Below, in pieces: positions 26,736 to 56,598 of a stretch of 58,631 bases of DNA. This stretch comes from a virus (Duplodnaviria; Caudoviricetes). The notes beneath the pieces are model-generated. The model was not told the DNA's origin, did not search any database, and worked only from the letters and a program-made list of their open reading frames with translations. The stretch's first letter is position 1. Each line of letters begins with the position of its first letter. A program made the translations under genes and the position numbers. Where the stretch lies: the IMG/VR virus record IMGVR_UViG_3300037510_000677, positions 1-58,631 of that record, one strand, 5' to 3'.

Positions 26736-27647
26736 TTAGGGTCCATTGCTACCGTAAGCTGCTCGGAAGTTAGATACCCCAAAACTGTATCTTTCCACAG
26801 CTTTTGCAAGTAAGTTGTCGGTACTAAATTCTGTGTAAACGTCAGTTTTAACTGGTGTTCTAACATAATGTTTAAACCCATCTGGCGCATCTGTGAGCAG
26901 GTACCAAGCATTAGGTTGGTATGGTGTCAGGTATTGGTTAACCCGGTAACCTTGTGGAACCATCTGCAAGTTGTAGAGCGCATTGATGTCATTTAGTTGC
27001 GTACCAACGCGGAAAGAAGATTGGAGCAATCTTTCAGCGGTAAATTGTCCTTGTGGAGGTACAATCAATTTCAAAGGTTTAGTTTGGATGATAAGGCCTG
27101 CTTGGTCTTTGAATTGCTGAACCGTCACAATCGCGGCTTCTAAAGAAGCTTCAGATAAGTCCGCTTGTACAACGGGGGTATTAGCAACAACGCCACCTGC
27201 TGTAATCGGGTGATTCAAAGAAAACAATGGCTGACCGTCACCAATTGGGAAGGCTGCATTAAAGCCATTGTTAAGAATTGAAGCGCCTAAAATTTCCTTG
27301 GTCTGAGCTAAGGATTTCTTTAAAGCTCTAACCATTAATGGGAATTTTGACTTGTAAAGGTTGTCTTCCATTGCTTGTTGCGTAATCGCAAAGCTTAATC
27401 CGACGAACTTATGAACATAAGAAGTCGTGATAGCTTGTTGCATGGAATCAACTGCGGTTGGCGCACCTTCTGGACGAATTTGCGCAAGCCCTAGCATCTT
27501 CATTTCTTCTTCGATTTCAACCGCTTTATCTGAGTGGTAGACTTCGAAAATTTCCGACCATTGTGATGGGTACTGTGGATAGTCCCCGAAAACTGCGGCT
27601 AATCCAGGTCGTAAGAGATTAGCGATTTGAGTAGTATTAATTGCCAT
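26736..27647 (-). CDS. Major capsid protein (Mu gpT-like, HK97 fold)
   Basis: LRPGLAAVFG..Y, EDNLY, GDGQPLFS..HP, LIVPP, KAVERYSFG. Confidence 0.88.
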   Translation of the reverse strand: MAINTTQIANLLRPGLAAVFGDYPQYPSQWSEIFEVYHSDKAVEIEEEMKMLGLAQIRPEGAPTAVDSMQQAITTSYVHKFVGLSFAITQQAMEDNLYKSKFPLMVRALKKSLAQTKEILGASILNNGFNAAFPIGDGQPLFSLNHPITAGGVVANTPVVQADLSEASLEAAIVTVQQFKDQAGLIIQTKPLKLIVPPQGQFTAERLLQSSFRVGTQLNDINALYNLQMVPQGYRVNQYLTPYQPNAWYLLTDAPDGFKHYVRTPVKTDVYTEFSTDNLLAKAVERYSFGVSNFRAAYGSNGP

Positions 27648-27650
27648 TTC

Positions 27651-28367
27651 TTATACCCCTACCGTGCCAGTGCCACCCTTGTATGGATGGTTGTTGATAA
27701 TGACTAGAACGTTATTGAAAACGCCTGTGATGATTCCCCCGTTATTGGCGTAAGGAACCTGGGTTGGAGTTGGATTTGGCTCAAAATCAACGATTTTTAA
27801 GGCTCTGGTAGCATTCCCTGTAGCAATTGTTGCTTGGTCTAAAAAGACTGCTGATTTGCCCGTTGTGGTCGAGCCCGTTAATGGATTTGAAGGTGGTGTA
27901 TAAGCGCCGCCCGGGCCATTAACTGCATTAAAAGAGTTAGGATTTGCACCGATTGCCCAGTTTGCATTGCTGTTAAGGTCTGCAATGGTTGCACCGATTG
28001 CATTAGCAGGATTTCCATTAATAGAAACCTGAATGCTATAGATGATATTTGGGTCGTCAGTTACAAAAGCGGTTGCATAGCCGCCAGCTTGCACAGCAGT
28101 TCCTGCTGTCCAATAAGCTGAAAAATTATAATTGCCATTAACGTCGTACCATTCAACGCCTTGGAAGGAACCTAAAATAGGATTACCATCACCAGCGGTT
28201 GCAATTCCGATAACGCCGTTAGCAAGAAGTGTTACGGGGTCTCCGGTGAAAAGAGAAGTACCGTATGCAGAAGTAATTCGATATTGACGCGTTTGGTTGT
28301 TCCAAGTGGAACCGCCTAGATAATAGCGAGGCTGCAGACCAAACGGCGCATTAACGCCATAAGCCAT
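27651..28367 (-). CDS. Capsid-associated / decoration protein
   Basis: APFGLQP...Y.I.S.YGT.LFTGDPV...DDPN; start re-called at ATG 28367 with GGAG RBS. Confidence 0.7.
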   Translation of the reverse strand: MAYGVNAPFGLQPRYYLGGSTWNNQTRQYRITSAYGTSLFTGDPVTLLANGVIGIATAGDGNPILGSFQGVEWYDVNGNYNFSAYWTAGTAVQAGGYATAFVTDDPNIIYSIQVSINGNPANAIGATIADLNSNANWAIGANPNSFNAVNGPGGAYTPPSNPLTGSTTTGKSAVFLDQATIATGNATRALKIVDFEPNPTPTQVPYANNGGIITGVFNNVLVIINNHPYKGGTGTVGV

Positions 28368-28444
28368 GGAAAAATCTCCAATGTCTGCTATCTGTGAAGA
28401 TAAATAGCAATAAATTTTGAACAATTACGCTTTCGCGTATCCGC

Positions 28445-31145: not shown

Positions 31146-31934
31146 TTAACAGCTCTTAATCTTCTTTAAAGGTTTAGGTTTGCCGCTAAGGGTTGCTTCT
31201 CCATGACGAATTTTGGCGACACCGCCTGCTGCTAATTTCACAGGTTTCACCTTGACGCCATGCTCACCGCGCATTGGCCAATGAGTGTCTCCTCCCATCG
31301 AGCCGCGTAAATTGCCAGAGCCTGACTTGGAATTTCCACCCATGGTTTGACTAACGCTTGGGCCTTGCGGATCTGCGTAACCGCCCGCATTAAAACGCTT
31401 TAAGTGTCCGCCTGCTTTTAACTTGACGGACTTTACTTTAACCCCGTGTTCGCCTTTCATTGGCCAATGGGTATCGCCCCCTTTGGAGCCTCTTAAATTG
31501 TCATGCCCTGCTTTAACTGGGCCCCCTGAGGCGTAGCAATGTTTTAGATGGCCTTCGCCTTTCTTCATCATGTGCACACGTCTGGTTGGGTGACGGGCAA
31601 CACCGCCTTTCTTTAGGTGTTCAGCATCTTCGAACTTAACCGTTTTCATGGCTGGTGTTTTTGCACGCGTTGGAATGTGTAAATCGGTTTGCTCTTTGCT
31701 CATGGCATGGGTTTTTGGAGTACTTCCGCCCATGACCTTTGCTGCATGGTGACGAGGAGCGGGGTTGCCCTCGATTGCGTGACCGCCATTTTTAAAAGGA
31801 CGCATATTGGTTCTGCCAGGACTTGACATGCTCATGGTTTGTGCTGGATGGTCTGCTGCTCTTAATTCATGAGCAAACATCTTTTCTGCGTTTGAACGCA
31901 TAGAATCATTTCCGCTAAAGCCAGGTTTAAACAT
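31146..31934 (-). CDS. Basic low-complexity protein with xxxGG repeats
   Basis: Start re-called at ATG 31934; FKNGG/LKKGG/YASGG/LKAGG/FNAGG/LAAGG; 31-aa internal duplication. Confidence 0.7.
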   Translation of the reverse strand: MFKPGFSGNDSMRSNAEKMFAHELRAADHPAQTMSMSSPGRTNMRPFKNGGHAIEGNPAPRHHAAKVMGGSTPKTHAMSKEQTDLHIPTRAKTPAMKTVKFEDAEHLKKGGVARHPTRRVHMMKKGEGHLKHCYASGGPVKAGHDNLRGSKGGDTHWPMKGEHGVKVKSVKLKAGGHLKRFNAGGYADPQGPSVSQTMGGNSKSGSGNLRGSMGGDTHWPMRGEHGVKVKPVKLAAGGVAKIRHGEATLSGKPKPLKKIKSC

Positions 31935-34416
31935 TAGGTTTCTCCGCCTTGTGTTGAGGTTTACGTATATTGGCAATGACTAAGTCGACTTCGTTTTTCT
32001 CCTCAGCCATTTCTTGCTCGGCTTCTATCTTGGCCTTATCGCCCTCGAATCGAAGCTGTGTCTTAAAGGCTTCCACTTCTGCCTTCTCTTGTGATATTTC
32101 CTTATCTGCTTCAACACGCGCCATCGTTTCTTGTGATTTTAATTGAGCGGCTTCGCGTCTTTGTTCAATGTCTGCCATCATGACTTTTTGCGGTATGATT
32201 TGAGCCTCTTGTGCTTCCATTTGTTGTAATTGTTCTTGCTCCATCTGCTGCTTGGCTTCTTCAGCATTCATCAATGAAACTTGATTTTGAATTTCTGGTA
32301 TTTGTAATAATTGTTCTTCGGGTACATTAAACTGCTGCGCCAACATTGGGTTTTGACTTAAGATTTGTTTTGCAACTTTATTGGCGTAATGCGATTGAAT
32401 ATGGGATTCCATTTGCATCATAAACATAGGATTTGTTTGCATAAAAACAGGATTATTGGAAACCTGCTGCACAAATCTACGATGAAGTAAGATATGTGAA
32501 TCATCATCTTGAAAATAAGCTGTCCTAATCGGCTGATTTTGAAATAAAAGGACATTTTCAGAATTAGCGTCTAAGGCTTGAGGTTGCGGGACAGGCTTTA
32601 ACAGCTTATCGATGTTATCAATCCCCATCGCGGTATACATCATGCGATAGGCTTCTCTTAAGTCATGCATCTCTGGGGCGGCTTGAGCAAGCTTTAAAAA
32701 CGCTTCTGCCCTTAATAACCGATGCGTGCTGGTTAAGACATTGGGGTCTGATACCGGAACGATATTAATTCTGTCGCTAAAATCTTGCTTCATGATGGCA
32801 GATTCTTTACCGGGCACCATGAAGGGATAAGGTTCTGGGGGAAGCACGTCTGCAAAGAGGTCAAACAAAAGCTTGAATTCGTACTTTTGCGAATTATGCA
32901 TTGACATTAGGGATGCTGATTGCAACCGGGTTGCAATCTCAATCATAGAAAGCGTTGTACCAACGGGGGTGTTTTGCCCCTGCTCTGGTATCTGCTCTTC
33001 GGTAGCTGCCAAAAGACTTAAGGTCTCTTGTTTTAGCTCCGTTCGCAAAGCTGCCAAGACTTGAGATGGTTCTGCATAAGGCATCGGCATGATGCAGTCG
33101 CTTATTGGCATCCCGCCCGTTTCGACTTCATGCCATTCTGCAGGCCCAATGGCTTTATCATTGGTTTCTGCTCTCAAGCTCTTGGTCTTAAGCCCCCCTG
33201 GGAAATTTTTTAAAGTACCAGCGTCTAATTGCTGTCTTAGGACACTAGTTAAGGTAATAGAGTTAGAGCCCACTAAATGGGCAAGCCCAATGCCATAAAG
33301 TCCAAAGCCTGGTAAGAACTTATATTGGACAAAGTATTCGCGTCTTTTAAAGTTTGGGTCGCCTTCTTTCCAGTTGCGCCTGATGGCAACAACCTTTTTA
33401 AGCGCCTCGCAAATTGTGACGATGTAAGGGCATGGCAATTCGTTGCGTTTAGTGTCTTCATCGCTTCGTAAATCCTTTTCATCAAGTTCTACGTGGCATT
33501 CATACATTTTGAAAAGGCTTTTGTTTTCGCTGGTACCCTTGTCTAACCCCTCTAGATTTTCTGATTTCTTATTAATAGAGGATGGTTCATCATCTTCATC
33601 ATTGGCGTTTTCAGGGAGCGTGCACTTAACAAATTCCCCCCGGCTTTGTCTTAATAAAAAATCTTTACGGGTAATGTAGTAAACTTGAGTCACGCGGTTA
33701 GAGGCCAACAAGGATTCAGTGTTAATGTTGACGATAAAGTCTTGCGGTTTAACAAAGCGGCCAATGGGAAGATTGGTTAAGGGGTCTTGGTAGACCTTCC
33801 TAAAACCAGAGCCCATGAAGATGGTATAAAGGATAGCTTCGTCAAAATCGGGATAATAATCTTTATCAAGCTCTGTTAAATAGTAGTTCATGAAGAGTTT
33901 AACGCGGTCAGCTTCGTCTTCAGTTGCTTCTGTGGGGGTTCCAATGATTTCCACTCTAACTGGCCCAGCGGGCGGTAAAAGCTCTTTTTTAAAGACGGAG
34001 TAGTTACGGTATAGGGCAGTTGCTAACGTCGTGTCATAAGCCGCACAGGCCTGAAAAAAGGGGATATTGCGAAACTCTTCTACCTTAAGGCCAAGATAGT
34101 TCATGGCTAAGACGATTGTCTTTTCCCATTTGTCCCGGCTTGCCATGTCGTCTTTGATTTCATCAATCAGACGGGAGGCCAAAGCGCTCAAGGAAGGCGA
34201 CTTTAAAGATAGAGCTAAGTTCGCGTAGAAGTCGTCCTCGGGGGGTAAAACATCAGAATCACCACCCGAGTCTTCACTGACGACCTCATAAACCGTTGAA
34301 CCGTCCGGTAGTTCGGCAGTGGCTTGAATGTCTTCTAAAGGAATACCAGTATCGTCCTCAATGGGAGGAAGGATGTCGATTTCTACTTCATCTTCTTCTG
34401 GGAATTGAAACGCCAT
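31927..34416 (-). CDS. Portal protein
   Basis: F.ANLA...SR..WE; GSGFRKVY.D; YFVQYKFLPGFGLYGIGL.HL; RQ.LDAGTL.N.PGG; PVSDPN; Gln-rich tail. Confidence 0.9.
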   Translation of the reverse strand: MAFQFPEEDEVEIDILPPIEDDTGIPLEDIQATAELPDGSTVYEVVSEDSGGDSDVLPPEDDFYANLALSLKSPSLSALASRLIDEIKDDMASRDKWEKTIVLAMNYLGLKVEEFRNIPFFQACAAYDTTLATALYRNYSVFKKELLPPAGPVRVEIIGTPTEATEDEADRVKLFMNYYLTELDKDYYPDFDEAILYTIFMGSGFRKVYQDPLTNLPIGRFVKPQDFIVNINTESLLASNRVTQVYYITRKDFLLRQSRGEFVKCTLPENANDEDDEPSSINKKSENLEGLDKGTSENKSLFKMYECHVELDEKDLRSDEDTKRNELPCPYIVTICEALKKVVAIRRNWKEGDPNFKRREYFVQYKFLPGFGLYGIGLAHLVGSNSITLTSVLRQQLDAGTLKNFPGGLKTKSLRAETNDKAIGPAEWHEVETGGMPISDCIMPMPYAEPSQVLAALRTELKQETLSLLAATEEQIPEQGQNTPVGTTLSMIEIATRLQSASLMSMHNSQKYEFKLLFDLFADVLPPEPYPFMVPGKESAIMKQDFSDRINIVPVSDPNVLTSTHRLLRAEAFLKLAQAAPEMHDLREAYRMMYTAMGIDNIDKLLKPVPQPQALDANSENVLLFQNQPIRTAYFQDDDSHILLHRRFVQQVSNNPVFMQTNPMFMMQMESHIQSHYANKVAKQILSQNPMLAQQFNVPEEQLLQIPEIQNQVSLMNAEEAKQQMEQEQLQQMEAQEAQIIPQKVMMADIEQRREAAQLKSQETMARVEADKEISQEKAEVEAFKTQLRFEGDKAKIEAEQEMAEEKNEVDLVIANIRKPQHKAEKPNV
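33092..33120 (-). repeat. 29-nt portal segment duplicated exactly at 39557-39585
   Basis: atgcagtcgcttattggcatcccgcccgt occurs at both loci. Confidence 0.95.
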
Positions 34417-34538
34417 TGCCTAACCTAAACGGGTAAAAGCCTGTTATGCTGGCGCATAACGCTGACGCTATTTGTGAAGATGAATAGCAATAATCAGATT
34501 AAATAAATCAAGCAAGCTCAACAAGGGGGGTTGAATAA

Positions 34539-34763
34539 ATGAATAAATGGCTGGATTTGAAAACGCTTTCGCAGCTACTCTTGGTATTAAACATTCTGAT
34601 GGTGTCAGGAGCCTGGGCATTGGCCTTTATGGTTGCAATACTGACTAATATAGGTATCTTGTGGCTTAAGGTGGATTGGGCGGCATTGTTTTCCTTTTTG
34701 GTGATTGGGGGAATAGGGTTGATTCCGACGGGTTGTTTTTGGGAAGCGATGAATGAGGATTAG
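34539..34763 (+). CDS. Small membrane protein
   Basis: Two or three hydrophobic segments; GGGGG RBS; first gene of the plus-strand array. Confidence 0.65.
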   Translation: MNKWLDLKTLSQLLLVLNILMVSGAWALAFMVAILTNIGILWLKVDWAALFSFLVIGGIGLIPTGCFWEAMNED

Positions 34764-35054
34764 ATGATGTTCGTAAGTAAATTTCCATCAGGATTGTCTG
34801 CATTATTTGCATATGGACTCGGTGATGACAATCACGGCAAAGGTCATAACCCAACGATAAGCTCTTGGCGAGAATGTTTAGACTATATTACTTATAATTG
34901 TATTTATGGTAAAAACATCCAACACACCTATTGTAAGACAGAATTTGAGTGCTTAAACATTATATCCGAAATTTTTAGGGTGTTAGACCGGGGCAGATAC
35001 AAGGAATGCAAAGATTTTATTATTGAGATGGTTAGAGAAAGGATTGAGGGGTGA
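34764..35054 (+). CDS. Cassette protein, KDFI family
   Basis: YKECKDFIIEMVRER. Confidence 0.75.
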   Translation: MMFVSKFPSGLSALFAYGLGDDNHGKGHNPTISSWRECLDYITYNCIYGKNIQHTYCKTEFECLNIISEIFRVLDRGRYKECKDFIIEMVRERIEG

Positions 35055-35473
35055 AAAAATATTTATTTAGAGCTTATTGCGTACCGGAAAACAAATGGTA
35101 TTATCGAAACATTGACGTGCAAAATTCATTTGGACAAGATGAATTCTTAGATGAAGAATCATTTAGCTTATTTTCTGGGTTAGTAGACGGCAATGGCGTA
35201 AAAATATTTGAGGGCGATGTGGTTTCGGTTTTTTCGGGATTTGGCGAAAACAATCATCAAATAAGAAGAATAGCTTTAGTTGTATTTGAAAATAGCTTTT
35301 TCAAACTTAAGTTACCGCGATGTCTGCTTCCTTATACCCTTGAGCAATATTGTAATAGTATGTCTAATTTAATATCGATTATAGGTAATATATATGAAGG
35401 AAGATTTAAACATTTAGAATCTATAATTCTAGCTGATGATAATTATAAGATATACGAGGAGGATTGGGTATGA
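35051..35473 (+). CDS. YopX-family protein
   Basis: FRAY...FSGLVDGNGVKIFEGDVV...V.F....F...IIGNIYE. Confidence 0.85.
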   Translation: MKKYLFRAYCVPENKWYYRNIDVQNSFGQDEFLDEESFSLFSGLVDGNGVKIFEGDVVSVFSGFGENNHQIRRIALVVFENSFFKLKLPRCLLPYTLEQYCNSMSNLISIIGNIYEGRFKHLESIILADDNYKIYEEDWV

Positions 35474-35483
35474 GAGCTGAAGG

Positions 35484-35666
35484 ATGAAGCGCATTACAAT
35501 AAGCGATTATTATCATGCGCGCGATTTATATTTAAATCATGGAGAAGATGATGATGTTTTCAATATTATATGTGATATTTTTCAAACATTACATTGGGAA
35601 AGCCCTAAAGAATGCAAAAATATTATCCTTAAAAAGATAAGGAAAACTAATGACGATAAGAAATAA
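35484..35666 (+). CDS. Cassette protein, KDFI family
   Basis: NIICDIF..L....KECKNIIL; paralogue of 34764..35054. Confidence 0.7.
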   Translation: MKRITISDYYHARDLYLNHGEDDDVFNIICDIFQTLHWESPKECKNIILKKIRKTNDDKK

Positions 35667-35901
35667 AAAATACTTGATAGTGCTTTTAGCATTTTTAATG
35701 CTGAGCGGCTGCGCAACGCATGAAGCAATACCGCCTGATAAGCTGCCAGGATTTTTTACTGGACTTTGGCATGGCTTTATAATAATATACTCGGTTATCG
35801 CCCATCTTTTTAATGAAAACATACGAATATATTCTACCTATAATAACGGTGGATGGTATGATTTTGGATTTTTCATTGGAATTTGTGTTTTTTTTAGTTA
35901 G
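35650..35901 (+). CDS. Conserved membrane lipoprotein
   Basis: LSGC lipobox; GFFxGLWHG...NNGGWYDFGF. Confidence 0.8.
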   Translation: MTIRNKKYLIVLLAFLMLSGCATHEAIPPDKLPGFFTGLWHGFIIIYSVIAHLFNENIRIYSTYNNGGWYDFGFFIGICVFFS

Positions 35902-35910
35902 GGAAGCAGT

Positions 35911-36009
35911 ATGAACTGGAATAAAGAAAAGTGTATGAGTTTTTTAGTTAAAGTGGTTACCGTTGTAGCGTGTATAGCGCTTTTTATTTTGCTTAAGAAG
36001 TATTCGTGA
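35911..36009 (+). CDS. 32-aa single-TM peptide (not in ORF track)
   Basis: MNWNKEKCMSFLVKVVTVVACIALFILLKKYS fills the gap exactly. Confidence 0.5.
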   Translation: MNWNKEKCMSFLVKVVTVVACIALFILLKKYS

Positions 36010-36300
36010 ATGACAGAAGAAATACACCCAACAATAAAGAGGTTGATTAATGAGGGAAAGTTGAGTGTTGGTCAGTTTTATAATGAAGATAAAAAATCTG
36101 CTGACTGGTGCTATTTTGTTAGGGATTTTTATGTCTTGTGGGAGCTATTTTCGGCCGGATTAATATCGGAAAGCCAGAGAGAAAAAATGAGCAGCGTGCT
36201 TTGTGCAACCACAAGAGTAATATTAGTCAAGAAGGATTTTATAATGCAACAGATAATAATAAGCATCTATGAACATCGAGAAATCGATGACAAAAGCTAA
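36010..36300 (+). CDS. Cassette protein, KDFI family
   Basis: VKKDFIMQQI. Confidence 0.7.
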   Translation: MTEEIHPTIKRLINEGKLSVGQFYNEDKKSADWCYFVRDFYVLWELFSAGLISESQREKMSSVLCATTRVILVKKDFIMQQIIISIYEHREIDDKS

Positions 36301-36526
36301 AATATTTGACGGCTCACTTGATTTTGCAATATTTAATTGGTATTGGCATGATTGTTATCTTTCGTCAATATTCCGCGAGATTATTCATGGAATAAAACAG
36401 GAAGATGAAGTGTTAAAAAGTAGGGAAATATTAAATTTTTTCAGCTTTATATTTCATAACAAGCCCAAGGAAGCAAAGGATTTTATAATGGAGCAAGTAA
36501 GGAAGAATGATGCAGGGCGAAATTGA
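36287..36526 (+). CDS. Cassette protein, KDFI family
   Basis: PKEAKDFIMEQVRK; start re-called at ATG 36287. Confidence 0.7.
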   Translation: MTKAKIFDGSLDFAIFNWYWHDCYLSSIFREIIHGIKQEDEVLKSREILNFFSFIFHNKPKEAKDFIMEQVRKNDAGRN

Positions 36527-36845
36527 TAACTTTATTGCAGAGCTGAAGGGAATAGCTGAATATAGTAGCGCTTCATCAATGCTATCGCCTTTCCACAAAC
36601 GTGTTGGGATCAATTATGGCTTAGAATTGCAAAGGCTTTATCTTTATGATGCTTATTGTATTAAGAATTCAACAGGACTATTAACGCTGTACAGGCTATA
36701 TAATCGCATACGGGACAAGCATGACCTTTATTTGTTAATTTTTATTGGGCTTGAGCTTAGAGGTCGCATCTATGAAAGCAGAAATACAAGAAAACTTATA
36801 AAAGATTATATAATGCAGGTAATTAGGGATAAGCAAAATGGTTAA
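36507..36845 (+). CDS. Cassette protein, KDFI family
   Basis: RKLIKDYIMQVIRDK. Confidence 0.75.
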   Translation: MMQGEIDNFIAELKGIAEYSSASSMLSPFHKRVGINYGLELQRLYLYDAYCIKNSTGLLTLYRLYNRIRDKHDLYLLIFIGLELRGRIYESRNTRKLIKDYIMQVIRDKQNG

Positions 36846-37116
36846 AAGCGACAACTTTTATAGCGATGAATATTGCATTATAAGTAATCCGTATGAATAT
36901 GAGTATATCTATAGGCTTTATGAATTTAACAAAATTGGATGTGATTTTAAAGGAAAAGGTTTGGGTGATACTTTCTGGGATGAAAACCCGGTTTCAAATT
37001 TTTTAGATTTACTAATTCATCCGCGGTCATTAAGAAATTTTCTTCTTAGAGGTTCATCTTATAAAAACGCTAAAGATATTATAATGAACGCTGCCGCAAA
37101 GAAGGCGGCAAGATGA
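36838..37116 (+). CDS. Cassette protein, KDFI family
   Basis: YKNAKDIIMNAAAKK. Confidence 0.75.
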   Translation: MVKSDNFYSDEYCIISNPYEYEYIYRLYEFNKIGCDFKGKGLGDTFWDENPVSNFLDLLIHPRSLRNFLLRGSSYKNAKDIIMNAAAKKAAR

Positions 37117-37346
37117 TTTTTGAATACGTAATTTTAGAATCTGCAAGTGACATTAATTGCAACCTTTTTGCGTATACTTATGATGATTACGAATATTGGG
37201 AAAACTCAAATGATGAGCTTGCCTGTGATTTTTGTCGTAATATTTTATGGTATGCAGGAGGAGACTACTCGGTTTTAAAAAACTTTATTCTTGAAAGCAT
37301 AGAAAGAAAAATTAAACTGAATAACAAAAATGAACCAAATCCTTGA
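37113..37346 (+). CDS. Cassette protein, KDFI family
   Basis: YSVLKNFILESIERK. Confidence 0.7.
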   Translation: MIFEYVILESASDINCNLFAYTYDDYEYWENSNDELACDFCRNILWYAGGDYSVLKNFILESIERKIKLNNKNEPNP

Positions 37347-37719
37347 TTTGCTGCTTAATCATCTAACATGGGTATTGTTATTAACAATTGCTGTTCTTCC
37401 GTATTTTCATTTAATTAAAATACATAAGTATTGGGGTGATGGGTTGCACAGTTATGATTTTGACCGCTGGTTTTTTTATAGATTCCTATCAGATGATATC
37501 GTATATTTTAGATTGATTCCTGAAGGACATTTAGTAAAAAAACCCAAAATAGCAAGAAAATTTATTACCACAGACAGGATTTCGATGCTTCACAAATTCT
37601 TATGGCATATTGAGACTAATAGCTCGGCGCTCGCAAGAAAGATGATTATGAATGAAGTTAACTATTTAACCGCCATTAACCGCAAAGCACAAGACTTCCC
37701 CCCCCCTAATACCCGTTAG
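37330..37719 (+). CDS. Cassette protein with N-terminal TM segment
   Basis: KFLWHI...ALARKMIMNEV. Confidence 0.7.
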   Translation: MNQILDLLLNHLTWVLLLTIAVLPYFHLIKIHKYWGDGLHSYDFDRWFFYRFLSDDIVYFRLIPEGHLVKKPKIARKFITTDRISMLHKFLWHIETNSSALARKMIMNEVNYLTAINRKAQDFPPPNTR

Positions 37720-38123
37720 ACGCAATCTTTCATCTTAGCCTCATACATTCTTTTAATAAATTCTACCATAAGAGTGTAGGCGTTTTTCCCCATGACGGGT
37801 GTATTCCTAGCCACATAAAACTTCAAGTTAAAGAAATGACATTTAAAGCTTTGGCAGTATATTTTTAAACCCATCATTTCCTTGTCCGTAATAAGTGGAA
37901 AATTTGAAGTTTTAGAGTCAAATAAAGCATTAAAAGTTTCAAAATCAACATTCACCGATACGCCAAATATGTAGCCTTTGTCATTCTCTTCTTGCCATGT
38001 TAATAGTCGATGATCTATCTCAAAAAAAGAGGTTGTTATAAAATGAAATTGTTCGTCTTCCTCGGAATGGTTATCTACCTTTAAATACCATAAGGGATCT
38101 GTAAGTATCGTTATTAAGCTCAC
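37716..38123 (-). CDS. Cassette protein (divergent member)
   Basis: Start re-called at GTG 38123 after AGGAGG; junction identical to that of 38453..38746. Confidence 0.7.
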   Translation of the reverse strand: MSLITILTDPLWYLKVDNHSEEDEQFHFITTSFFEIDHRLLTWQEENDKGYIFGVSVNVDFETFNALFDSKTSNFPLITDKEMMGLKIYCQSFKCHFFNLKFYVARNTPVMGKNAYTLMVEFIKRMYEAKMKDCV

Positions 38124-38194
38124 TTCAGCGCCTCCTTTAAATACCATAATGGCTCTGTAAGTGATGGCACATTTTCGTCATCATTCTGATTCAT
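38120..38194 (-). pseudogene. 24-codon chimeric cassette remnant
   Basis: MNQNDDENVPSLTEPLWYLKEALK; LTEPLWYLK matches the downstream gene, KEALK matches the end of 38743..39015. Confidence 0.6.
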
Positions 38195-38468
38195 TTGTAA
38201 TTCTTTTCCTAACAGCATCTAATATATGGTCTCTTAAAAGAGTGTGACCATTTCTGCAAGATAGATAATTTAATATTAACAAAAAATGGATAGCAAAAGA
38301 CAGGCCCTTCTCGATTGACACCATCCAACCGTGACCAGAAATAAAAGATAGCTCACATGGCTGTGCCTTCAAACCCATAGGTCTTGTAAGGCTTTTTAAT
38401 GTTACACAATCTATGTTATCTAAACCAATCATAGATATAAAATATTCATCATTTAAGCTTTCTGACAT
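38181..38468 (-). CDS. Cassette protein, KDFI family
   Basis: HTLLRDHILDAVRKR. Confidence 0.7.
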   Translation of the reverse strand: MSESLNDEYFISMIGLDNIDCVTLKSLTRPMGLKAQPCELSFISGHGWMVSIEKGLSFAIHFLLILNYLSCRNGHTLLRDHILDAVRKRITNESE

Positions 38469-38746
38469 TTTTGAACTTCCTTCATAATTATGTCTTTTGC
38501 TTGCTTAATCTTTCCTTCTCTACGCAATAAAGTAATATCGTGTAAAAATTTAAAGACAAAATTACCTCTAATAGCTTCCAGGTTTGTTGATGTAAATTTA
38601 TATAATTTTTTATTAATGCAGCGGGAACGAACTGACCATTTTGAAATAAATACATAACAATCATCCAATTCTTGAAAGATAATGCCTTCTGACAACAAGA
38701 ATACACCATCCACCGGGTCGTCCAGGTTTATCCTTATTAAGCTCAC
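38453..38746 (-). CDS. Cassette protein, KDFI family
   Basis: FKFLHDI...IKQAKDIIMKEVQK. Confidence 0.75.
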   Translation of the reverse strand: MSLIRINLDDPVDGVFLLSEGIIFQELDDCYVFISKWSVRSRCINKKLYKFTSTNLEAIRGNFVFKFLHDITLLRREGKIKQAKDIIMKEVQKCQKA

Positions 38747-39015
38747 TTCAGCGCCTCCTTTTTAATCATCTGCATTACTCGCTGTGCATCATAATGACTT
38801 AAGGCATGTAAAAGCTGAAAAACAAAAATTTTTATATCTCCTTCAAAAACAAAATGATTGTAGTCAACAAAACCAACAAATTTTTGGACTTCTGCCCATG
38901 ACCAAATAATAGGGCCGCTCCAATAAAAACCATAATCAAACTTAAAGTGATATGGAATTTGCAAGCTTTTATAATCTACATTATTGATTATAAACCTTTT
39001 TATAATTATTGACAT
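38743..39015 (-). CDS. Cassette protein
   Basis: FQLLHAL...RVMQMIKKEALK. Confidence 0.7.
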   Translation of the reverse strand: MSIIIKRFIINNVDYKSLQIPYHFKFDYGFYWSGPIIWSWAEVQKFVGFVDYNHFVFEGDIKIFVFQLLHALSHYDAQRVMQMIKKEALK

Positions 39016-39404
39016 CTTTTAGTCTCGATTTCTTTCAAGATAAAATCTTTGTCTTGTTTGTTAGACCATACAGAAAGCCAAAACATAAATAAAAACTTTC
39101 CAGCAAAAGACGACCTGTAATCAATATAATCTTTGTAATTTTTAATTAAATCGGCATTTTGTTTATGTGCAAGACATACCCATCTTTTGACCAGTTTAAC
39201 GTTCCTTCTATCTATTGGAATTAATTTATCCAAACTAACCACGCATAAATATACGCAATCATAGTCTATGTAGACATCAAAAACAAAACCCTTTTCTTTA
39301 AATTCATTGATGCACGGTATCGCACGGTATCTCTCAAAATTTTTGCTAATATGATATATTCTCTGGTTTCTTAGAGCCAAATCATCAATACTCAAAGTCT
39401 TCAT
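39006..39404 (-). CDS. Cassette protein, KDFI family
   Basis: GKFLF...NKQDKDFILKEIETK. Confidence 0.75.
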   Translation of the reverse strand: MKTLSIDDLALRNQRIYHISKNFERYRAIPCINEFKEKGFVFDVYIDYDCVYLCVVSLDKLIPIDRRNVKLVKRWVCLAHKQNADLIKNYKDYIDYRSSFAGKFLFMFWLSVWSNKQDKDFILKEIETKRCQ

Positions 39405-39684
39405 TTTCTACCCCCAGTTTTACCAAGCGCTTCTTTTCTGCCTCGCGCATAATCTTGTTTTTAATGTATTCCATGCTAAGATTAACACTCATGCAGTGTA
39501 AAAAATCTAACACGAATATTTGGCATATCTCGTTGAAAGTTCCATGATAAATGTCAATGCAGTCGCTTATTGGCATCCCGCCCGTAACGTTACTTGGCGT
39601 TCCTGTGCAAAAAACATGATGATCTAAATATTTATAAAAAATAGCGCCATTCGTTAATATTATCGGCTTATCTCCTTCTGTCAT
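39385..39684 (-). CDS. Cassette protein carrying portal peptide TGGMPISDCI
   Basis: LDFLHCM...EYIKNKIMREAEKK; exact portal-derived 29-mer in frame. Confidence 0.8.
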   Translation of the reverse strand: MTEGDKPIILTNGAIFYKYLDHHVFCTGTPSNVTGGMPISDCIDIYHGTFNEICQIFVLDFLHCMSVNLSMEYIKNKIMREAEKKRLVKLGVENEDFEY

Positions 39685-39866
39685 TTTATACCACCCTTCT
39701 TGACTCTATCCATAATTATGTCTTTTAAGGCTTTGTAATCTATTTGATGTGGCCAATGTAATTGGTCTAAAAACATTAATGTACCACTATAAGATTTCCA
39801 TACCGAACAAATTTGGGTGCCGACATAGATATACCTTAACGTTATCGGCTTGTCATTTTCCGTCAT
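39681..39866 (-). CDS. Cassette protein, KDFI family
   Basis: MTENDKPI N-terminus shared with neighbour; YKALKDIIMDRVKK. Confidence 0.75.
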   Translation of the reverse strand: MTENDKPITLRYIYVGTQICSVWKSYSGTLMFLDQLHWPHQIDYKALKDIIMDRVKKGGIK

Positions 39867-40078
39867 TTTCTAGCCTCTTTGATAAAATTCATAATAGCAT
39901 GCCGCTTTCTTTCGGGTGCAAGCCAACTTGATGCTATTACAAAGGGTAATTCTTCTTGTGGAGTTAGGTTATCATCAGCTATATCCCGAAATCTAAACTC
40001 TCCATCTTTAGTTTTTATTATTTTTTCCCATCTTATTTCCCGAGGACCTATAACTAAACGCACATCAATTATCTCCAT
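39863..40078 (-). CDS. Cassette protein
   Basis: RKRHAIMNFIKEARK; coupled to neighbours. Confidence 0.65.
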   Translation of the reverse strand: MEIIDVRLVIGPREIRWEKIIKTKDGEFRFRDIADDNLTPQEELPFVIASSWLAPERKRHAIMNFIKEARK

Positions 40079-40391
40079 TTCTGCGCCTCTCTATTTCTCT
40101 TTTAATCCAGTTAACCTTTAACTTAAATGAAAATCTGTTGTCCAAAATCACAAAAGGAGTCTGCTCTCTTTCTGGTAAAGAATTAAACCATTCTCTTTGT
40201 ATAAAATTCCATTGGTCTTGTTAAAATCTTATTGCATAATTACTCCACGCTTCGCACCAGCCAAATCCTTCAATTGGTTTCGACATCATTATGGGCTCAT
40301 GATACCAATTGAAATTCGAATCGTAATAACTAAAAAAAGTTACCGAGTCACCGAAGTACAAATACCCCCTTCTAATTAGATAATGCTTCAT
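40065..40391 (-). pseudogene. Cassette gene interrupted by an in-frame TAA at 40221-40223
   Basis: 56 codons, TAA, then 51 more in-frame codons ending KLKVNWIKREIERRRNGDN. Confidence 0.55.
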
Positions 40392-40395
40392 TGCC

Positions 40396-40647
40396 TTACC
40401 AACCCTCCATATTTTTCACCTTCTTGATTTCCTGCATAATAAAATCTTTAATCATTTTTTGCCGTCCTTCCCAGATTAAATCAAAAAGCTTCATGACAGG
40501 TGTAATTTTTAATACTCTGCCTACAATGAAAAAACCTCTATTATTTGTGAAATAAAAGTATATCCTCGGTAAAATATCATCACTAAAGCCCAAATGCCCT
40601 TCTTCGAGCAGATAATAATCTTGTGACCAAAATGTTTCGTCATTCAT
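40396..40647 (-). CDS. Cassette protein, KDFI family
   Basis: MKLFDLI...QKMIKDFIMQEIKK. Confidence 0.75.
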   Translation of the reverse strand: MNDETFWSQDYYLLEEGHLGFSDDILPRIYFYFTNNRGFFIVGRVLKITPVMKLFDLIWEGRQKMIKDFIMQEIKKVKNMEGW

Positions 40648-41009
40648 CGCCCTGATTTCCTGTCAATCTCTTCCATAATAAAATCTTTCAATATTTTAGC
40701 AGAAAATGCACCAATAAATTTATCTTGATTAATCTGTGTAAGAAATTTCATAATAAATGTTGGCGGCGATTCTAATTCAATTCTTTGATAATAAGAATTT
40801 CCATTATTATAGGCAGGATTATATTCCTTAAAATAAAAATAAAATTTATTTACATCACTATTTTTTACGCCTGCATTTCCTTTTTCTAAAAATCCTATAT
40901 GTATTGCTAAGTAGCTACCACATTCGGATTCTCTTATTATTTCAGGTCTTTTCTTATTAGGCGTTCTACATTTAAAACAAGCACAATTATCACCATGTAT
41001 TGTAGTCAT
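40644..41009 (-). CDS. Cassette protein, KDFI family, with N-terminal HxxxCxCxxC
   Basis: MKFLTQI...AKILKDFIMEEIDRK; overlaps the terL stop. Confidence 0.75.
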   Translation of the reverse strand: MTTIHGDNCACFKCRTPNKKRPEIIRESECGSYLAIHIGFLEKGNAGVKNSDVNKFYFYFKEYNPAYNNGNSYYQRIELESPPTFIMKFLTQINQDKFIGAFSAKILKDFIMEEIDRKSGR

Positions 41010-42681
41010 CTGATGTTACCCCATAAAATCCATGTTTTGGCCTTAATATTGAATTAACGACTTTAGGATTTTTACGATGATTAAGCAAGCCGTTTTGTTG
41101 TAGATACAATATCACTTGCGTCATCGTATCTACCACGTCTCTGCTTTCCCCCGCTGGGAATAACTCGCACTGCCTTAGCAGTTCTTTAGCGCTCGGTCTA
41201 AGCTTCTTGAAATCTGGCGGTAATGCTGGAACGTAAATCAAACCATTCTGTATTAACGGTGTAGCCAAGACTACCCGTTGTGTTTTGTCCCCAAACTTAG
41301 TTGGGTCAAACTTATGCGCCTCAATCCCTGCTCTCCTTAAGTCCTGCACTAACGATATACCATTTGCTTTAGCTTCTACAAGCATCATATCAACGCGATG
41401 TCTGCCATCTACTTCCACCTGCTTGTTACCGTCTTCTCCCCCGTCATCCCGGTAATCTTTGGAAATACGCTGACAGAGTTCGCGTAGGTAAGGGTATTCA
41501 AGCCTTCCTCGCCAAAGGCTAAGAAGGATAAGGCAGGGGATAGATTCGTCTTGATTATTCTCAAGGTTAAAATATCCCCAGGTGGTAATAGCAGAATAAG
41601 CTCCTTCCTCGCTCTCACCGTAAGCCGTGTCTAAAGAAGCAATAACGCGTAAGGATTGAGGGGGATTCTCTTTCTTCCACCAGCTGAACCAATCCACCTT
41701 GATAATGCCGCCCCCTTGTGGGGTTGGACGCTGCTGTAATTGACCGCTTATCGCATAACTACTGCCTAAGTCAGCTTTAAGCTCTTCTAATTCTGGGGTG
41801 CCAATCTTATTTGGCCATAGCAGGTCTCCACTGTTAATACGGGGGTCTTGCCATCTTTCTCCATTGGTAAAAGAGAGAGGTACCGTAATAGAGCGTCTGG
41901 CTGGTTCAAACTCCATGGGAAGGATTAAGCGTACCCACTGCTTTGTCGTATCTTTGGACATCACATATCCGCTAATATCAGCTTCATGGAGGCGCTGCTG
42001 TACGATGATTCTGCCGCCTGTCTTCTTGTCGTTAAGACGGGTAGACCAGACGTGAGACCACCACTCTAAAGCGTTCTCGCGCTTAGCTTCAGACTCTCCA
42101 TCTTTCGCATTGTTTGGGTCATCACAGACAATAATGTCTCCCCCTTCCCCCGTTGCAACCCCTCCTACCGAGGTAGCAATGCGATAGCCTAGCCTGTCGT
42201 TTTCAAAGCGCAGCTTCTCGTTTTGGTCATGGGCCAGCTGAAACACGTGCCCCCAATTCTCTTGGTACCAAGGAGACATGATGAGGCGACGACAGCGGGT
42301 AGAGTCACGCGTTGCAAGCTTTTGGGCGTAAGAGGCAAACAGAAACTTCTTCCAAGGGTATTTAATCCAGGCATAGGCTGGGAACATGACAGAGACGATC
42401 GTGGATTTACTCGTGCGAGGAGGGACGTTGATTAAGAGATTACGGATTTGACCGCTTAATACCGCTTCCAAGTGCTCGCAAATAGCCTGGATGTGCCAGC
42501 CATCGACAAACTCTACCCCCCCTTCTATTTGCGGCCATCCATGCTTTACGAATTCATAGAGCGATGAAGACGCAATCTCTGACTCCATATATTTTTTTAC
42601 AGAGCAGAAAAAGCCAAATGTTGATTCTATTGTAGGTAGATCAAGTAGAGAGGGTGCTGTAGGTGGTGGTAATTGTAGCAT
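40990..42681 (-). CDS. terL: Terminase large subunit
   Basis: Walker A LLINVPPRTSKS, Walker B IIVCDDP, QQRLH..D, RNase H-like SLDTA...VEAKANG...DVVD. Confidence 0.95.
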   Translation of the reverse strand: MLQLPPPTAPSLLDLPTIESTFGFFCSVKKYMESEIASSSLYEFVKHGWPQIEGGVEFVDGWHIQAICEHLEAVLSGQIRNLLINVPPRTSKSTIVSVMFPAYAWIKYPWKKFLFASYAQKLATRDSTRCRRLIMSPWYQENWGHVFQLAHDQNEKLRFENDRLGYRIATSVGGVATGEGGDIIVCDDPNNAKDGESEAKRENALEWWSHVWSTRLNDKKTGGRIIVQQRLHEADISGYVMSKDTTKQWVRLILPMEFEPARRSITVPLSFTNGERWQDPRINSGDLLWPNKIGTPELEELKADLGSSYAISGQLQQRPTPQGGGIIKVDWFSWWKKENPPQSLRVIASLDTAYGESEEGAYSAITTWGYFNLENNQDESIPCLILLSLWRGRLEYPYLRELCQRISKDYRDDGGEDGNKQVEVDGRHRVDMMLVEAKANGISLVQDLRRAGIEAHKFDPTKFGDKTQRVVLATPLIQNGLIYVPALPPDFKKLRPSAKELLRQCELFPAGESRDVVDTMTQVILYLQQNGLLNHRKNPKVVNSILRPKHGFYGVTSDDYNTW

Positions 42682-44730: not shown

Positions 44731-45777
44731 TTAATCCTCTTCCCTTTTAGAAAATTTCATCTTTGACCTTTTGCTAGATTCCCCCGTTTCATCAGCTGCC
44801 TTCTTTTTAGACTCAAATGCTTTTAACATCATTCCAGTTGGGTGAGCTAATGTTCCATTCGTTAACATTTGGATGCCGCTTTCTCTAAAGTGCTCTATAA
44901 ACACAGACGTAATCCTTGTATATTCCATGTTTAATTTCTTTAATGACGGCATCTGCCTTAAGGCCATAACCGCTTTATCATCAATATGGTTATGGCTTAG
45001 GTCAAGCTCAACCAAACTGGTCATGTTGCTATAATCCATCAATCCGTCAGAAAATATAGAGTTTTTTCCTAAATTAAGCACCTCTAGAATGGAATTATTG
45101 GCAAAAGCTAAAGCCCCCTCTGAACCAATGTTGTTTTTATATAAATTAAGCTTCTTCAATGACGGATGAGTCGCTAAAATTTTTGCCCCCTCATCTCCAA
45201 TCTGATTTTCCCCAAGATTCAAAGAGGTTAAATTCTTCATCTTCATAAAATAGGGCACTATCTCTGCTCCTGCCGGATTAGGCCATGCAAATGATTCAGG
45301 TAATCTCATGAATTGCTTGCCAACCCATACTTCCTCTAATGTATCGTTAAATGGAAGAGCAGCTAGCCCTTCCTTGGTGATAAGATTATCTATCATCGAT
45401 AGGGACTTGATGCTTCGATTATTGCGAATAATGTCATAAATATCCTTGTCTTCAACAAAACAGCTTGAAACACTCAATTTAACGATTTTTTCGTTCCGAG
45501 CCAGGATATGACCCCTATCTTTAATCGAAAACCCATATAAACATAATTCTTTTAGATTTAGCTCAGATAGCAATAGAACGCCATTATCGCTTGGAACATA
45601 ATCTTCACCATTAATATAGAGATAATTAATGTGTGTGTTGGTCTTCAATGCATCAAGTAGCCCCTCTAAATCCGATTCTTCCGATATATTTAAAAATAAT
45701 TTACCATCATCAGGCTCATCTTCAGTGCCCGTATACTCATTGCTCCTAATCCGCTGTAACAATGCTTCATCTATCAT
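44731..45777 (-). CDS. Leucine-rich repeat protein (RNI-like)
   Basis: Repeats such as LTSLNLGENQIGDEGA, LKKLNLYKNNIGSEGA, LVELDLSHNHIDDKAV. Confidence 0.92.
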   Translation of the reverse strand: MIDEALLQRIRSNEYTGTEDEPDDGKLFLNISEESDLEGLLDALKTNTHINYLYINGEDYVPSDNGVLLLSELNLKELCLYGFSIKDRGHILARNEKIVKLSVSSCFVEDKDIYDIIRNNRSIKSLSMIDNLITKEGLAALPFNDTLEEVWVGKQFMRLPESFAWPNPAGAEIVPYFMKMKNLTSLNLGENQIGDEGAKILATHPSLKKLNLYKNNIGSEGALAFANNSILEVLNLGKNSIFSDGLMDYSNMTSLVELDLSHNHIDDKAVMALRQMPSLKKLNMEYTRITSVFIEHFRESGIQMLTNGTLAHPTGMMLKAFESKKKAADETGESSKRSKMKFSKREED

Positions 45778-50839: not shown

Positions 50840-50865
50840 GTTATCTCCTTATTCATATCCATTAG

Positions 50866-50937
50866 CGTCCCTGCCCGGAATCGAACCGAGCTTTTCAGGA
50901 TGAAAACCTGGTGTCCTAACCGATAGACGACAGGGAC
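50866..50937 (-). tRNA. tRNA-Glu (TTC)
   Basis: Cloverleaf: GTCCCTG/CAGGGAC acceptor, anticodon loop TTTTCAT, T-loop TTCGATT; CCA not encoded. Confidence 0.93.
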
Positions 50938-52020: not shown

Positions 52021-52311
52021 TATTATATAAATATTTTAGATATATATTATATATATATCGACCTATCAGGAAACTTTTTTGGACTACTTATGTATACAGG
52101 TATTTTGTCCACAGGATATCCACAGAAAAAATTTAGCAGTTTAGCCAAAGGCTGTTTGGCGACTGAAGACCTATCAGGAAACTTTTTTGGACTACTTATG
52201 TATACAGTAGTTATTGTTTTTTAATATGAACAGATTGTTAACAAGGTTTTCACAGGATATCCACAGAGTTATCCACAGGATATTTGAACTATCCGGAAAT
52301 TCCGGATAGTT
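52021..52311. promoter_or_regulatory. Putative replication origin
   Basis: AT-rich tract 52021-52058; exact 40-bp repeats 52060-52099 and 52168-52207; DnaA box TTATCCACA 52269-52277 plus variants at 52105, 52116, 52257. Confidence 0.75.
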
Positions 52312-53840: not shown

Positions 53841-54404
53841 ATGCAAGACTTTTTATTAGGTGTCTTTTTTGTCCTTCTATTGCTGTTGGCTTATTCTGCG
53901 ATGGCGGTTCCCCCTCCCGGTGGTAAACATTTAATTGTTGAGTACAACGATTGCAACCCTGAAAAGCTTAATAGCTTGCAGCAGGTTGATAATGCGCTCC
54001 AAGAAGCAGCCAGGTTAGGGAGGTTTAATATCGTAACTTCTGGCTATAAAGTCTTTAAGCCACAGGGTATTACTTATTACCTGTTGTTATCTGAATCACA
54101 TATTTCCATTCATACGTGGCCTGAGTCTTCTTATGCAGCGGTTGATATTTTTACGTGTGGAAAAGGTGATTTAACCCCCCTGGCGAGGGTAATAGGCAAA
54201 AGATTAGAATGTGAGCATGTCGAAAATCTTTTAATAGAAAGAGGCGACGGCATCGTTATACAACAAGAAGAAAGAACAAACAATGATGAAATACGCTCTG
54301 GTAGTTATCATTCCACGCGCTTACAGTCTGATGAGAGAAGAGAAGAACGGAGAGGTTCTGTATTACCGTGGGCTATCCATCGAAAAAGAATTGGAAGTCT
54401 TTAA
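53841..54404 (+). CDS. speD: Pyruvoyl-dependent S-adenosylmethionine decarboxylase-family proenzyme with N-terminal signal peptide
   Basis: GKHLIVE, F.PQGIT..LLLSESHISIHTWPE..YAAVDIFTCG (E|S autocleavage site). Confidence 0.9.
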   Translation: MQDFLLGVFFVLLLLLAYSAMAVPPPGGKHLIVEYNDCNPEKLNSLQQVDNALQEAARLGRFNIVTSGYKVFKPQGITYYLLLSESHISIHTWPESSYAAVDIFTCGKGDLTPLARVIGKRLECEHVENLLIERGDGIVIQQEERTNNDEIRSGSYHSTRLQSDERREERRGSVLPWAIHRKRIGSL

Positions 54405-54645: not shown

Positions 54646-54847
54646 TACCCGTTCTATTATTGAAGCCAACATCGAAGAGATGATAAAAGCAGGGCATTCA
54701 AGGCAGCAGGCAATTGCAGCAAGTTATGAAAACGCAAGAAGACATCCAACATTACCTACCGCTCAACCAAACAAAACCACAAACGCCCTTAAAGTTTCTG
54801 AACCTGTTAAAAGAGGAAGGGGTCGCCCCCGTAAAAATCCGGCGTAA
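54626..54847 (+). CDS. Small conserved phage protein with AT-hook
   Basis: MPL..G.....I..NI.E..KAG....QA.A.....AR; KRGRGRPRK. Confidence 0.75.
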   Translation: MPLIPGNTRSIIEANIEEMIKAGHSRQQAIAASYENARRHPTLPTAQPNKTTNALKVSEPVKRGRGRPRKNPA

Positions 54848-55202
54848 GCCAGCTTTAAAAGAATCTCAATTCCAAGCAAATGTTTTTACATGGCTAACCT
54901 TACAATACCCTCACGTTAGGAAATTAACGTTTGCGGTTCCTAATGACAGCAGGAGAGACAAAAAGCATGGTGCTCGCTTAAAAAGAAGCGGGATGACAGC
55001 AGGAGTCTCCGACATCATCTGTCTTTGGCCTAATAAAAAATACCATGGATTAGTCGCCGAATTAAAAATTGGCAAAAATAAGCTAACAGATTTACAAAGC
55101 GAATTTCTTGAAAACGCTAAACAAGCAGGCTACAGCACGAATGTGTGGTATAGTCTTGATGAGGCCATGGAAGGTTTTAAAAAATATTTAAACCCTTCCT
55201 AA
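54726..55202 (+). CDS. VRR-NUC domain nuclease
   Basis: ESQFQ...FAVPN...LKRSGMTAGVSD...ELK..KNKLT..Q..F; start uncertain. Confidence 0.85.
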   Translation: MKTQEDIQHYLPLNQTKPQTPLKFLNLLKEEGVAPVKIRRKPALKESQFQANVFTWLTLQYPHVRKLTFAVPNDSRRDKKHGARLKRSGMTAGVSDIICLWPNKKYHGLVAELKIGKNKLTDLQSEFLENAKQAGYSTNVWYSLDEAMEGFKKYLNPS

Positions 55203-56597: not shown

Positions 56598-56598
56598 G

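Follow-up and report, generated by a model that had tools for sequence, protein, structure and literature searches.

Organization of the terL–Portal Junction

The stretch of DNA analyzed here, hereinafter the window, has a length of 58,631 nt; it corresponds to a complete virus record of IMG/VR, the ends of which overlap by 133 nt. The features discussed below are as follows:

625-2569 (625-855, 2134-2376, 2366-2569 and a profile-matched ORF, 1688-1897), plus strand: looser members of the cassette family, with weak leave-one-out scores (E from 0.44 to 10)
31927-34416, minus strand: portal gene, 829 aa (PHROG_1216, AlphaFold2 model, Foldseek)
33062-33150, minus strand: imperfect hairpin on the coding strand of the portal gene, whose loop and part of whose 3' arm are the copied 29-mer
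33092-33120, minus strand: donor copy of the 29-mer, encoding portal residues 433-442 (TGGMPISDCI) in a motif conserved among 44 aligned portals
34764-41009, both strands: cassette made up of two convergent arms (plus arm 34764-37719, minus arm 37716-41009) with about 17 small genes that are paralogous to one another, delimited by BLASTP links and alignments
39385-39684, minus strand: recipient gene P0001, a 99-aa ORFan and member of the cassette family (translation; leave-one-out profile)
39520-39548, plus strand: weak sigma-70-like site TTGGCA-17-CATGAT (9 of 12 positions), whose end lies 8 nt ahead of the 29-mer on the antisense strand
39557-39585, minus strand: recipient copy of the 29-mer, encoding residues 34-43 of the small protein and spanned by an independent contig
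40990-42681, minus strand: large terminase subunit gene, terL (PHROG_38, E = 7e-83), directly upstream of the minus-strand arm of the cassette

The terL gene is located upstream of the portal gene, on the same strand, in 59 of the 59 relatives that have both genes, and the same order was found in the window. The gap between the two genes is shorter than 1 kb in 49 of these 59 relatives and longer than 2 kb in 7, and it reaches 6.57 kb here, where it is filled by the cassette. Judging by this comparison of sequences, the terL–portal junction of this phage group is a site of variable insertions.

Together with the looser members, the tightly packed, low-GC genes of the cassette form a phage-specific family of about 20 small paralogues. 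Their C-termini share a motif of the xKDFIMxE[IV]xxK type, which follows a hydrophobic helix. In a leave-one-out profile test, 13 of the 20 members were recovered with E < 1e-3 and the other 7 gave weak scores; P0001 was recovered by the profile of the other 19 with an E-value of 8.6e-7. No match to the family was found in Pfam and PHROG, and the ESM Atlas gave no usable neighbor. A search of 5.8 billion proteins with the family profile returned only proteins of the same genome, five of them at E <= 0.01. Among the ORFs of 82 relatives' loci, no members of the family were found (best E = 0.5).

The recipient protein P0001 has no relatives outside the genome among the 5.8 billion clustered proteins. 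An exhaustive HMMER pass over 1.84 billion representatives gave three further matches at E <= 0.001. The matched proteins (1410, 2543 and 666 aa) align in 18 stretches, 5 stretches and 4 stretches, in that order, and were judged to be tandem-repeat sequences that accumulate score and not relatives. The N-terminus of P0001 (MTEGDKPI) resembles that of the product of its upstream neighbor (MTENDKPI). Modeling of P0001 using AlphaFold2, with the family as the alignment, led to a model with N-terminal strands and two confident C-terminal helices (residues 52-66 and 71-89, pLDDT 84-90), and it is these helices that carry the family motif. Residues 26-50, which include the patch encoded by the 29-mer, had a pLDDT below 50 and form the linker between the N-terminal strands and the C-terminal helices.

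A 29-nt Segment Shared by Two Genes

The sequence ATGCAGTCGCTTATTGGCATCCCGCCCGT (29 nt) occurs exactly twice in the window, at positions 33092-33120 and 39557-39585, in both cases on the plus strand as written, and no further match with up to three mismatches was found in the whole window. Both copies are located inside minus-strand ORFs and are read in the same frame, so that TGGMPISDCI is found as residues 433-442 of the 829-aa product of ORF 31927-34416 and as residues 34-43 of the 99-aa product of ORF 39385-39684. A preliminary description of this DNA, made without database searches, had reported the exact identity, the shared strand and frame and the common decapeptide, and all of this was confirmed by re-reading the sequence. 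The local context is ...EVE-TGGMPISDCI-MPMPY... in the portal protein and ...SNV-TGGMPISDCI-DIYHG... in the small protein. Read on the coding strand, the 29-mer continues with C in the portal gene but with T in the P0001 gene, and isoleucine is encoded in both cases; since this difference is synonymous, the shared unit comprises ten whole codons with 29 of 30 nt identical. Outside this unit the identity of the flanks drops abruptly, to 14 of 45 bases on one side and 8 of 45 on the other. The distance between the two copies is 6,465 nt.

The same description had considered chance identity of this length negligible, and our estimates agree. None of 100 dinucleotide shuffles gave two matches of the 29-mer, and the self-BLASTN E-value of the segment was 3.5e-8. 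The entire genome contains only three exact repeats of at least 18 nt, namely a local intergenic repeat of 40 nt, the 29-mer itself and 28 nt common to the 5' ends of two cassette genes; among unrelated sequences, the next longest exact repeats measure 17 nt. Chance was therefore ruled out. A decayed duplication of the portal gene was ruled out as well, because the flanks are at random identity and the similarity of the proteins ends with the ten residues.

The patch is richer in GC than its surroundings, as had also been noted: its GC content is 59%, compared with 35% for the remainder of the small gene and 44% for the portal gene. The third codon position is G or C in 7 of the 10 codons of the patch, and the corresponding fraction (GC3) is 0.38 in the rest of the small gene and 0.30 in the 16 other family genes pooled. 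A patch with 59% GC and a GC3 of 0.7 within a gene of 35% GC shows no amelioration, and its arrival is therefore recent. For the GC-rich 21 nt and the 26 nt that flank the patch, a search for a second template found none, and no allele or orthologue of the P0001 gene lacking the patch was found in the collections searched.

The Portal Gene as the Donor

The label of portal gene, given to the donor from the sequence alone, was confirmed using both profile and structure comparison. Residues 190-629 matched PHROG_1216 with an E-value of 3.9e-18, and 7975 homologues were found at E <= 1e-10, the best with 57-58% identity over the searched region. A Pfam search with the portal sequence gave no match, and the domain PF23899 is carried by some of the homologues. 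Only chance matches to arginyl-tRNA synthetase (E of about 0.2) were obtained in a sequence search of solved structures. An AlphaFold2 model was built from 44 aligned sequences with a mean pLDDT of 79.6. The model agrees with the portal fold, which is characterized by stem helices, a clip, a tunnel loop and a long wing helix, and Foldseek matched it best to the portal of SU10 (7z44, E = 7e-19), followed by the portals of N4 and T7.

The copied peptide is located within a conserved block of the portal proteins, E[VI]ETGGxPIxDCIMxMPYxEPS. T433 and G435 reach a conservation of 90% or more in the portal alignment, in which P446 never varies; by manual count of the alignment columns, T-G-G stands at the motif position in 33 of the 43 aligned homologues. 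The identical decapeptide was found in none of these 43, which points to the portal allele of the same phage, and not to a generic portal, as the source. Since the peptide belongs to a motif conserved across portals and the small protein is without relatives outside the genome, the portal gene is the donor, and transfer from the small gene to the portal gene is ruled out by the conservation of the motif. The preliminary description had proposed a recent capture of a fragment of a structural gene, and this direction and age are supported by the motif conservation and by the GC content of the patch.

In the portal model, residues 433-442 form a turn and a short helix (438-441) between two long helices (378-404 and 452-470); a low-confidence loop and then a long helix come after. 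In the canonical portal topology, the segment between the two stem helices is the clip domain. Residues 433-442 were provisionally assigned to the clip by their position in the model and by this topology. The clip is the exposed end of a portal, which contacts the terminase and, later, the adaptor.

Presence of Both Copies in Independent Metagenomes

The record comes from a metagenome assembly, and a chimera of assembly or sequencing could in principle have placed a piece of the portal gene in the cassette gene. Parts of the record were found in four soil-metagenome runs from four studies, none of them listed as an RNA run. The run of the probable source (X1) contains every sampled word of the record, yet none of its contigs could be aligned here; such a result can stem from filtering and was given no weight. 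In one of them (run X2), whose sample and study differ from those of the probable source, a 216-nt contig covers positions 39408-39623 with no differences and extends past the cassette copy by 149 nt on one side and 38 nt on the other. The portal copy is bridged by a 346-nt contig of another run (X3; 32935-33280). Three contigs, drawn from two sources (JGI/IMG and Logan), encode exactly the same 99-aa protein, and the patch is identical in all contigs aligned over 32000-41000, which represent one haplotype only. One low-coverage X2 contig (depth 2) stops at position 33120, precisely where the portal copy has its last base; this coincidence would suit a chimera, but nothing was read into the end of so shallow a contig. 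In addition, a de Bruijn chimera swaps the flanks at a repeat and would not insert an in-frame 29-mer between flanks that continue one ORF. The preliminary description had proposed a check with spanning reads; here a spanning contig came from an independent run, and an assembly chimera is very unlikely as the origin of the patch.

A One-Off Copy

Each of 27 small cassette or accessory proteins, along with 30 shuffles of it, was searched by ungapped short-query BLASTP against every protein of the phage outside the family. Only P0001 (1 of 27) exceeded its shuffles, with 39.8 bits against a maximum of 25.7. At the DNA level, no repeat of at least 18 nt other than the 29-mer joins the cassette to a structural gene. 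The loci of 82 relatives (768,814 nt, partial genomes) contained 21 exact non-local repeats of at least 20 nt, none of which touches a portal gene.

Two weaker resemblances were examined and rejected. The peptide LAHKQN, shared by ORF 39006-39404 and gene 7710-8828, is at chance level (23.7 bits against a shuffle maximum of 29.0); in the DNA, 39156-39174 and 8634-8652 agree in 18 of 19 nt with a BLASTN E-value of about 1.2, and no capsid annotation was obtained for gene 7710-8828. The peptide RPGLAA[IV]FG, shared by 1329-1712 and 26736-27647 (20 of 27 nt), lies within the shuffle range, with 30.4 bits against a maximum of 31.9.

The patch is therefore a one-off. The preliminary description had gone further, citing a capsid case alongside this one and suggesting that the family acquires self-epitopes. 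The likeliest candidate for the capsid case, although its identification is not certain, is LAHKQN, with the chance-level score given above. That description had itself named a one-off insert without comparable captures in relatives as the observation that would refute the idea; this is what was found, with one protein of 27 above its shuffles and no portal-derived repeat of at least 20 nt in the 82 loci, and the generalization to a self-epitope family fails.

Discussion

The results allow us to propose, as the reading that we consider reasonably likely, that 30 nt of the portal gene were inserted recently, by a templated event, into a tolerant linker, probably with a neutral effect. Ten codons of the phage's own portal gene, with 29 nt still identical, would have been copied recently into the variable linker of P0001. 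As to the mechanism, we infer that a nascent strand or DNA end within the cassette gene briefly took the portal region as its template and then returned, in the course of replication or recombinational repair, the route being illegitimate recombination of the microhomology-mediated template-switch type. The insertion could have survived because it brought a whole number of codons with no stop in frame and fell where the protein is predicted with low confidence and the family shows no conservation. The patch would then have no function of its own and would be a recent, probably neutral footprint of reshuffling in the variable halves of the genes. The phage encodes recombination proteins, namely an ERF-family annealing protein (E = 5.9e-18) and a VRR-NUC nuclease (E = 1e-5). 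One observation runs against neutrality: a random insertion would share both strand and frame in about one case in six, or one in five among the stop-free frames. We regard this coincidence as mild evidence that the peptide itself might matter.

Phage genomes are mosaic owing to illegitimate recombination at variable hotspots, and the classical joints exchange whole genes or modules between phages. The recipient gene likewise lies in a hotspot of accessory genes, between terL and portal, where inserts of more than 2 kb were found at the junction in 7 of 59 relatives; unlike the classical joints, a piece of only 30 nt was moved within one genome and into the middle of a gene. Template switching at microhomology is an established process that gives templated insertions (PMC8421209). 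The present case resembles such insertions of the MMBIR type in that a short stretch was copied exactly from the same genome, with sharp borders and no homology past the patch. It differs in that the template lies 6.4 kb away, whereas the templates of the yeast signature are described within 100 bp (PMC8421209). In addition, the process is described there in yeast and human cells, and here the genome is that of a phage and the patch is coding and in frame. The hallmark of the mechanism is microhomology at both junctions, as scored against the sequence before the insertion, and every allele found here carries the patch. No phage example of a templated insertion was found in a literature search of open-access papers and preprints. 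Thus, the instance is new and its kind is known, namely a short patch of templated or illegitimate recombination in a mosaic phage genome. The probability not assigned to this or to the other readings discussed here falls to unlisted routes, such as an exchange with a near-identical co-infecting genome.

The shared frame leads to the question of whether the small protein displays the turn and helix of the portal clip functionally, either by decoying or competing for a host sensor that recognizes this portion of the portal, or by competing for a partner of the portal clip, such as the terminase or the head–tail adaptor. We consider this unlikely, together with its corollary that the family would be an anti-defense or assembly-modulating arsenal with variable recognition halves. 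Besides the common strand and frame and the identical decapeptide, the idea draws on the predicted location of the segment between two stem helices in the clip, the exposed end in known portal structures, and on the membership of the recipient gene in an expanded, fast-diverging ORFan family at a variable hotspot. The statement of the preliminary description that Avs4 detects phage portal proteins is in print (PMC13581612). Portals are in fact described as sensed by several defenses, Avs4, Avs11 and RAZR (PMC13581612, PMC13017515), so that the copied peptide comes from a documented trigger, and sensors that read short motifs, Lit and CapRel, are described as well (PMC13581612). However, the same source describes Avs proteins as fold readers that act over extended interfaces (PMC13581612). 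A decoy for them would present the recognized portal fold over such an interface, and P0001 shares ten residues only, in a linker with a pLDDT below 50; the idea of an Avs4 decoy therefore fits poorly with fold-based recognition. The route of evasion from portal sensing described for RAZR escapers is also different and consists of point mutations in the portal itself (PMC13017515). A decoy built from a portal fragment, or a fragment of a portal gene in an accessory phage gene, was not found in the open-access papers and preprints searched. Moreover, by imitating the clip of its own phage the protein might just as well disturb packaging, the event is a one-off with no above-chance self-peptide in any other member and no capture in the relatives' loci, and the shared frame is a coincidence of one in five to one in six only. 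A more elaborate version appears to us quite improbable. Here, the family of about 20 members would be a modular arsenal, in which a partner common to all members is bound by the constant C-terminal helical hairpin, and bait peptides are offered by the N-terminal halves, which vary. The decapeptide of the portal clip would be a fresh bait that mimics the exposed end of the portal and either blunts a motif-reading host sensor or tunes the contact of the terminase or adaptor with the portal. New specificities would arise as genes of the same phage donate templated micro-insertions, this one being the first caught before divergence erased it. If the patch did function as a mimic of the portal clip, it would represent a new kind of counter-defense or assembly control; the shared frame is the one observation here in favor of this.

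A role at the level of nucleic acid, which the preliminary description had also mentioned, seems to us improbable. The 29-mer would then be a shared RNA or DNA site, for example a common binding site in two mRNAs, a decoy target for a sequence-guided host system, or the start of an antisense transcript; in the last version, a plus-strand transcript starting just upstream would pair perfectly with the portal mRNA through its 5' end. Pairings of guides with their targets have lengths of this order (29 nt), and the sigma-70-like site ending at 39548 is suitably placed for such a transcript, but promoter-like sites occur in this AT-rich region at chance frequency (20, compared with 17.0 +/- 4.2 in shuffles). 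No plus-strand terminator follows, the sole terminator-like site in 37500-41200 being on the minus strand (38898-38885). In the portal context, where the segment provides the loop and 3' arm of the hairpin, the predicted RNA fold has an energy of -31.8 kcal/mol and a z-score of -2.27, with 3 of 200 shuffles as stable; this was one of five folds tried and is a weak signal. The cassette context gave no significant fold (z = +0.81 and -0.04). A search against Rfam returned nothing but one tRNA (tRNA-Glu). The ORF runs without interruption and lies tightly packed among its neighbors in an operon-like array, as expected of plain coding sequence. Exact-match scans found no other carrier of the 29-mer in viral and metagenome contig collections, and its 24-nt core was absent from 185,579 species genomes, a scan that mismatched or partly overlapping spacers would escape. 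The proposed check for CRISPR spacers thus gave no spacer matching the 29-mer or its core by exact match.

Two known systems place short repeated segments in or beside variable phage genes, namely diversity-generating retroelements (DGRs) and virus-borne CRISPR mini-arrays, and 29 nt is near the size of a spacer. Unlike the mini-arrays, the unit has no flanking direct repeats and no matching spacer by the exact-match scans, which argues against a mini-array or a solitary spacer. A DGR is ruled out, as the record contains no reverse transcriptase (RVT_1) and the two copies are 100% identical, with no adenine-specific differences.

Returning to the templated insertion, its context may be worth more than the patch itself. 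About 11% of the genome, located between terL and portal, is an expanded family of small proteins without relatives in 5.8 billion proteins, and this ORFan family is the more unusual feature of the region. As for the patch, it appears to be a clean templated micro-insertion in a phage genome, dated by its identity, in which codons of an essential structural gene were kept in frame in an accessory gene. Few such events can be seen, since they are soon obscured by divergence. If this reading is right, the patch shows a way for the variable halves of fast-evolving small phage genes to gain sequence.

Organization of the Record and Accessory Genes

The ends of the record carry a direct repeat of 133 nt with 99% identity (1–133 and 58,499–58,631), which suggests that the record is either circularly closed or terminally redundant; the collection nevertheless lists it as 'linear'. 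The following accessory genes were found:

44,731–45,777, leucine-rich-repeat protein (LRR_6, E-value 2.8e-22)
50,865–50,937, tRNA-Glu(UUC), the sole tRNA noted
53,841–54,404, S-adenosylmethionine decarboxylase (E-value 3.6e-30)
54,714–55,202, VRR-NUC nuclease
56,563–57,237, ERF-family annealing protein

Several repeats are grouped near 52 kb, and the 40-nt and 17-nt repeats are located in a stretch that is poor in genes:

52,060–52,099 and 52,168–52,207, exact 40-nt direct repeat with a spacing of 108 nt
52,110–52,126 and 52,251–52,267, 17-nt repeat
52,287–52,311, 25-nt palindrome

An origin or a regulatory function is possible for this stretch.

Portal Gene and Its Upstream Region

The portal gene, the donor of the 29-nt segment copied into a small cassette gene, contains an imperfect hairpin at 33,062–33,150 on its coding (minus) strand, with a folding energy of −31.8 kcal/mol and a z-score of −2.27. 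The copied 29-mer corresponds exactly to the loop and part of the 3′ arm of this hairpin. A structure of this kind in the donor sequence might have helped the strands to come apart; as one among five folds tried, the hairpin is weak evidence. A 27-nt repeat with 93% identity was also revealed, with one copy (34,467–34,493) directly upstream of the portal start and the other (28,387–28,413) around the position where the structural gene 27,651–28,424 starts; it may represent a common late promoter or leader.

A second peptide, RPGLAA[IV]FG, is common to the products of the genes at 1329–1712 (residues 52–60) and 26,736–27,647 (residues 13–21), where it matches at 8 of 9 residues and, in the DNA, at 20 of 27 nucleotides. 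Its score of 30.4 bits is inside the range of the shuffled controls (maximum 31.9), so this match probably arose by chance.

Small ORFan Family and the terL–Portal Junction

Approximately 20 small paralogous ORFan genes occupy about 11% of the genome. Their proteins vary in the N-terminal half and share a conserved C-terminal helix with a motif of the form xKDFIMxE[IV]xxK. Searches of 5.8 billion proteins, of Pfam and of PHROGs gave no relatives. The genes and the repeats among them are located as follows:

34,764–41,009, main cassette in the terL–portal junction, arranged as two convergent arms
625–2569, looser family members at the other end of the record
38,106–38,138 and 38,729–38,761, 33-nt repeat, 97% identical, 28 nt exact
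38,078–38,106 and 38,134–38,162, 29-nt repeat close to the former

In the family genes 37,716–38,147 and 38,453–38,746, the 33-nt repeat covers the ribosome-binding site together with the first codons. Both repeats may be recombination joints or common translation signals inside the cassette.

Among the 59 related phages holding both terL and portal, 7 (loci L016, L025, L026, L037, L045, L052 and L072) also had a terL–portal spacing of 2.2–5.9 kb, and no member of the small-protein family was found in the inserts of these 7 relatives. Because additional DNA of this size recurs at the same place, the terL–portal junction is a recurrent insertion hotspot in these phages.
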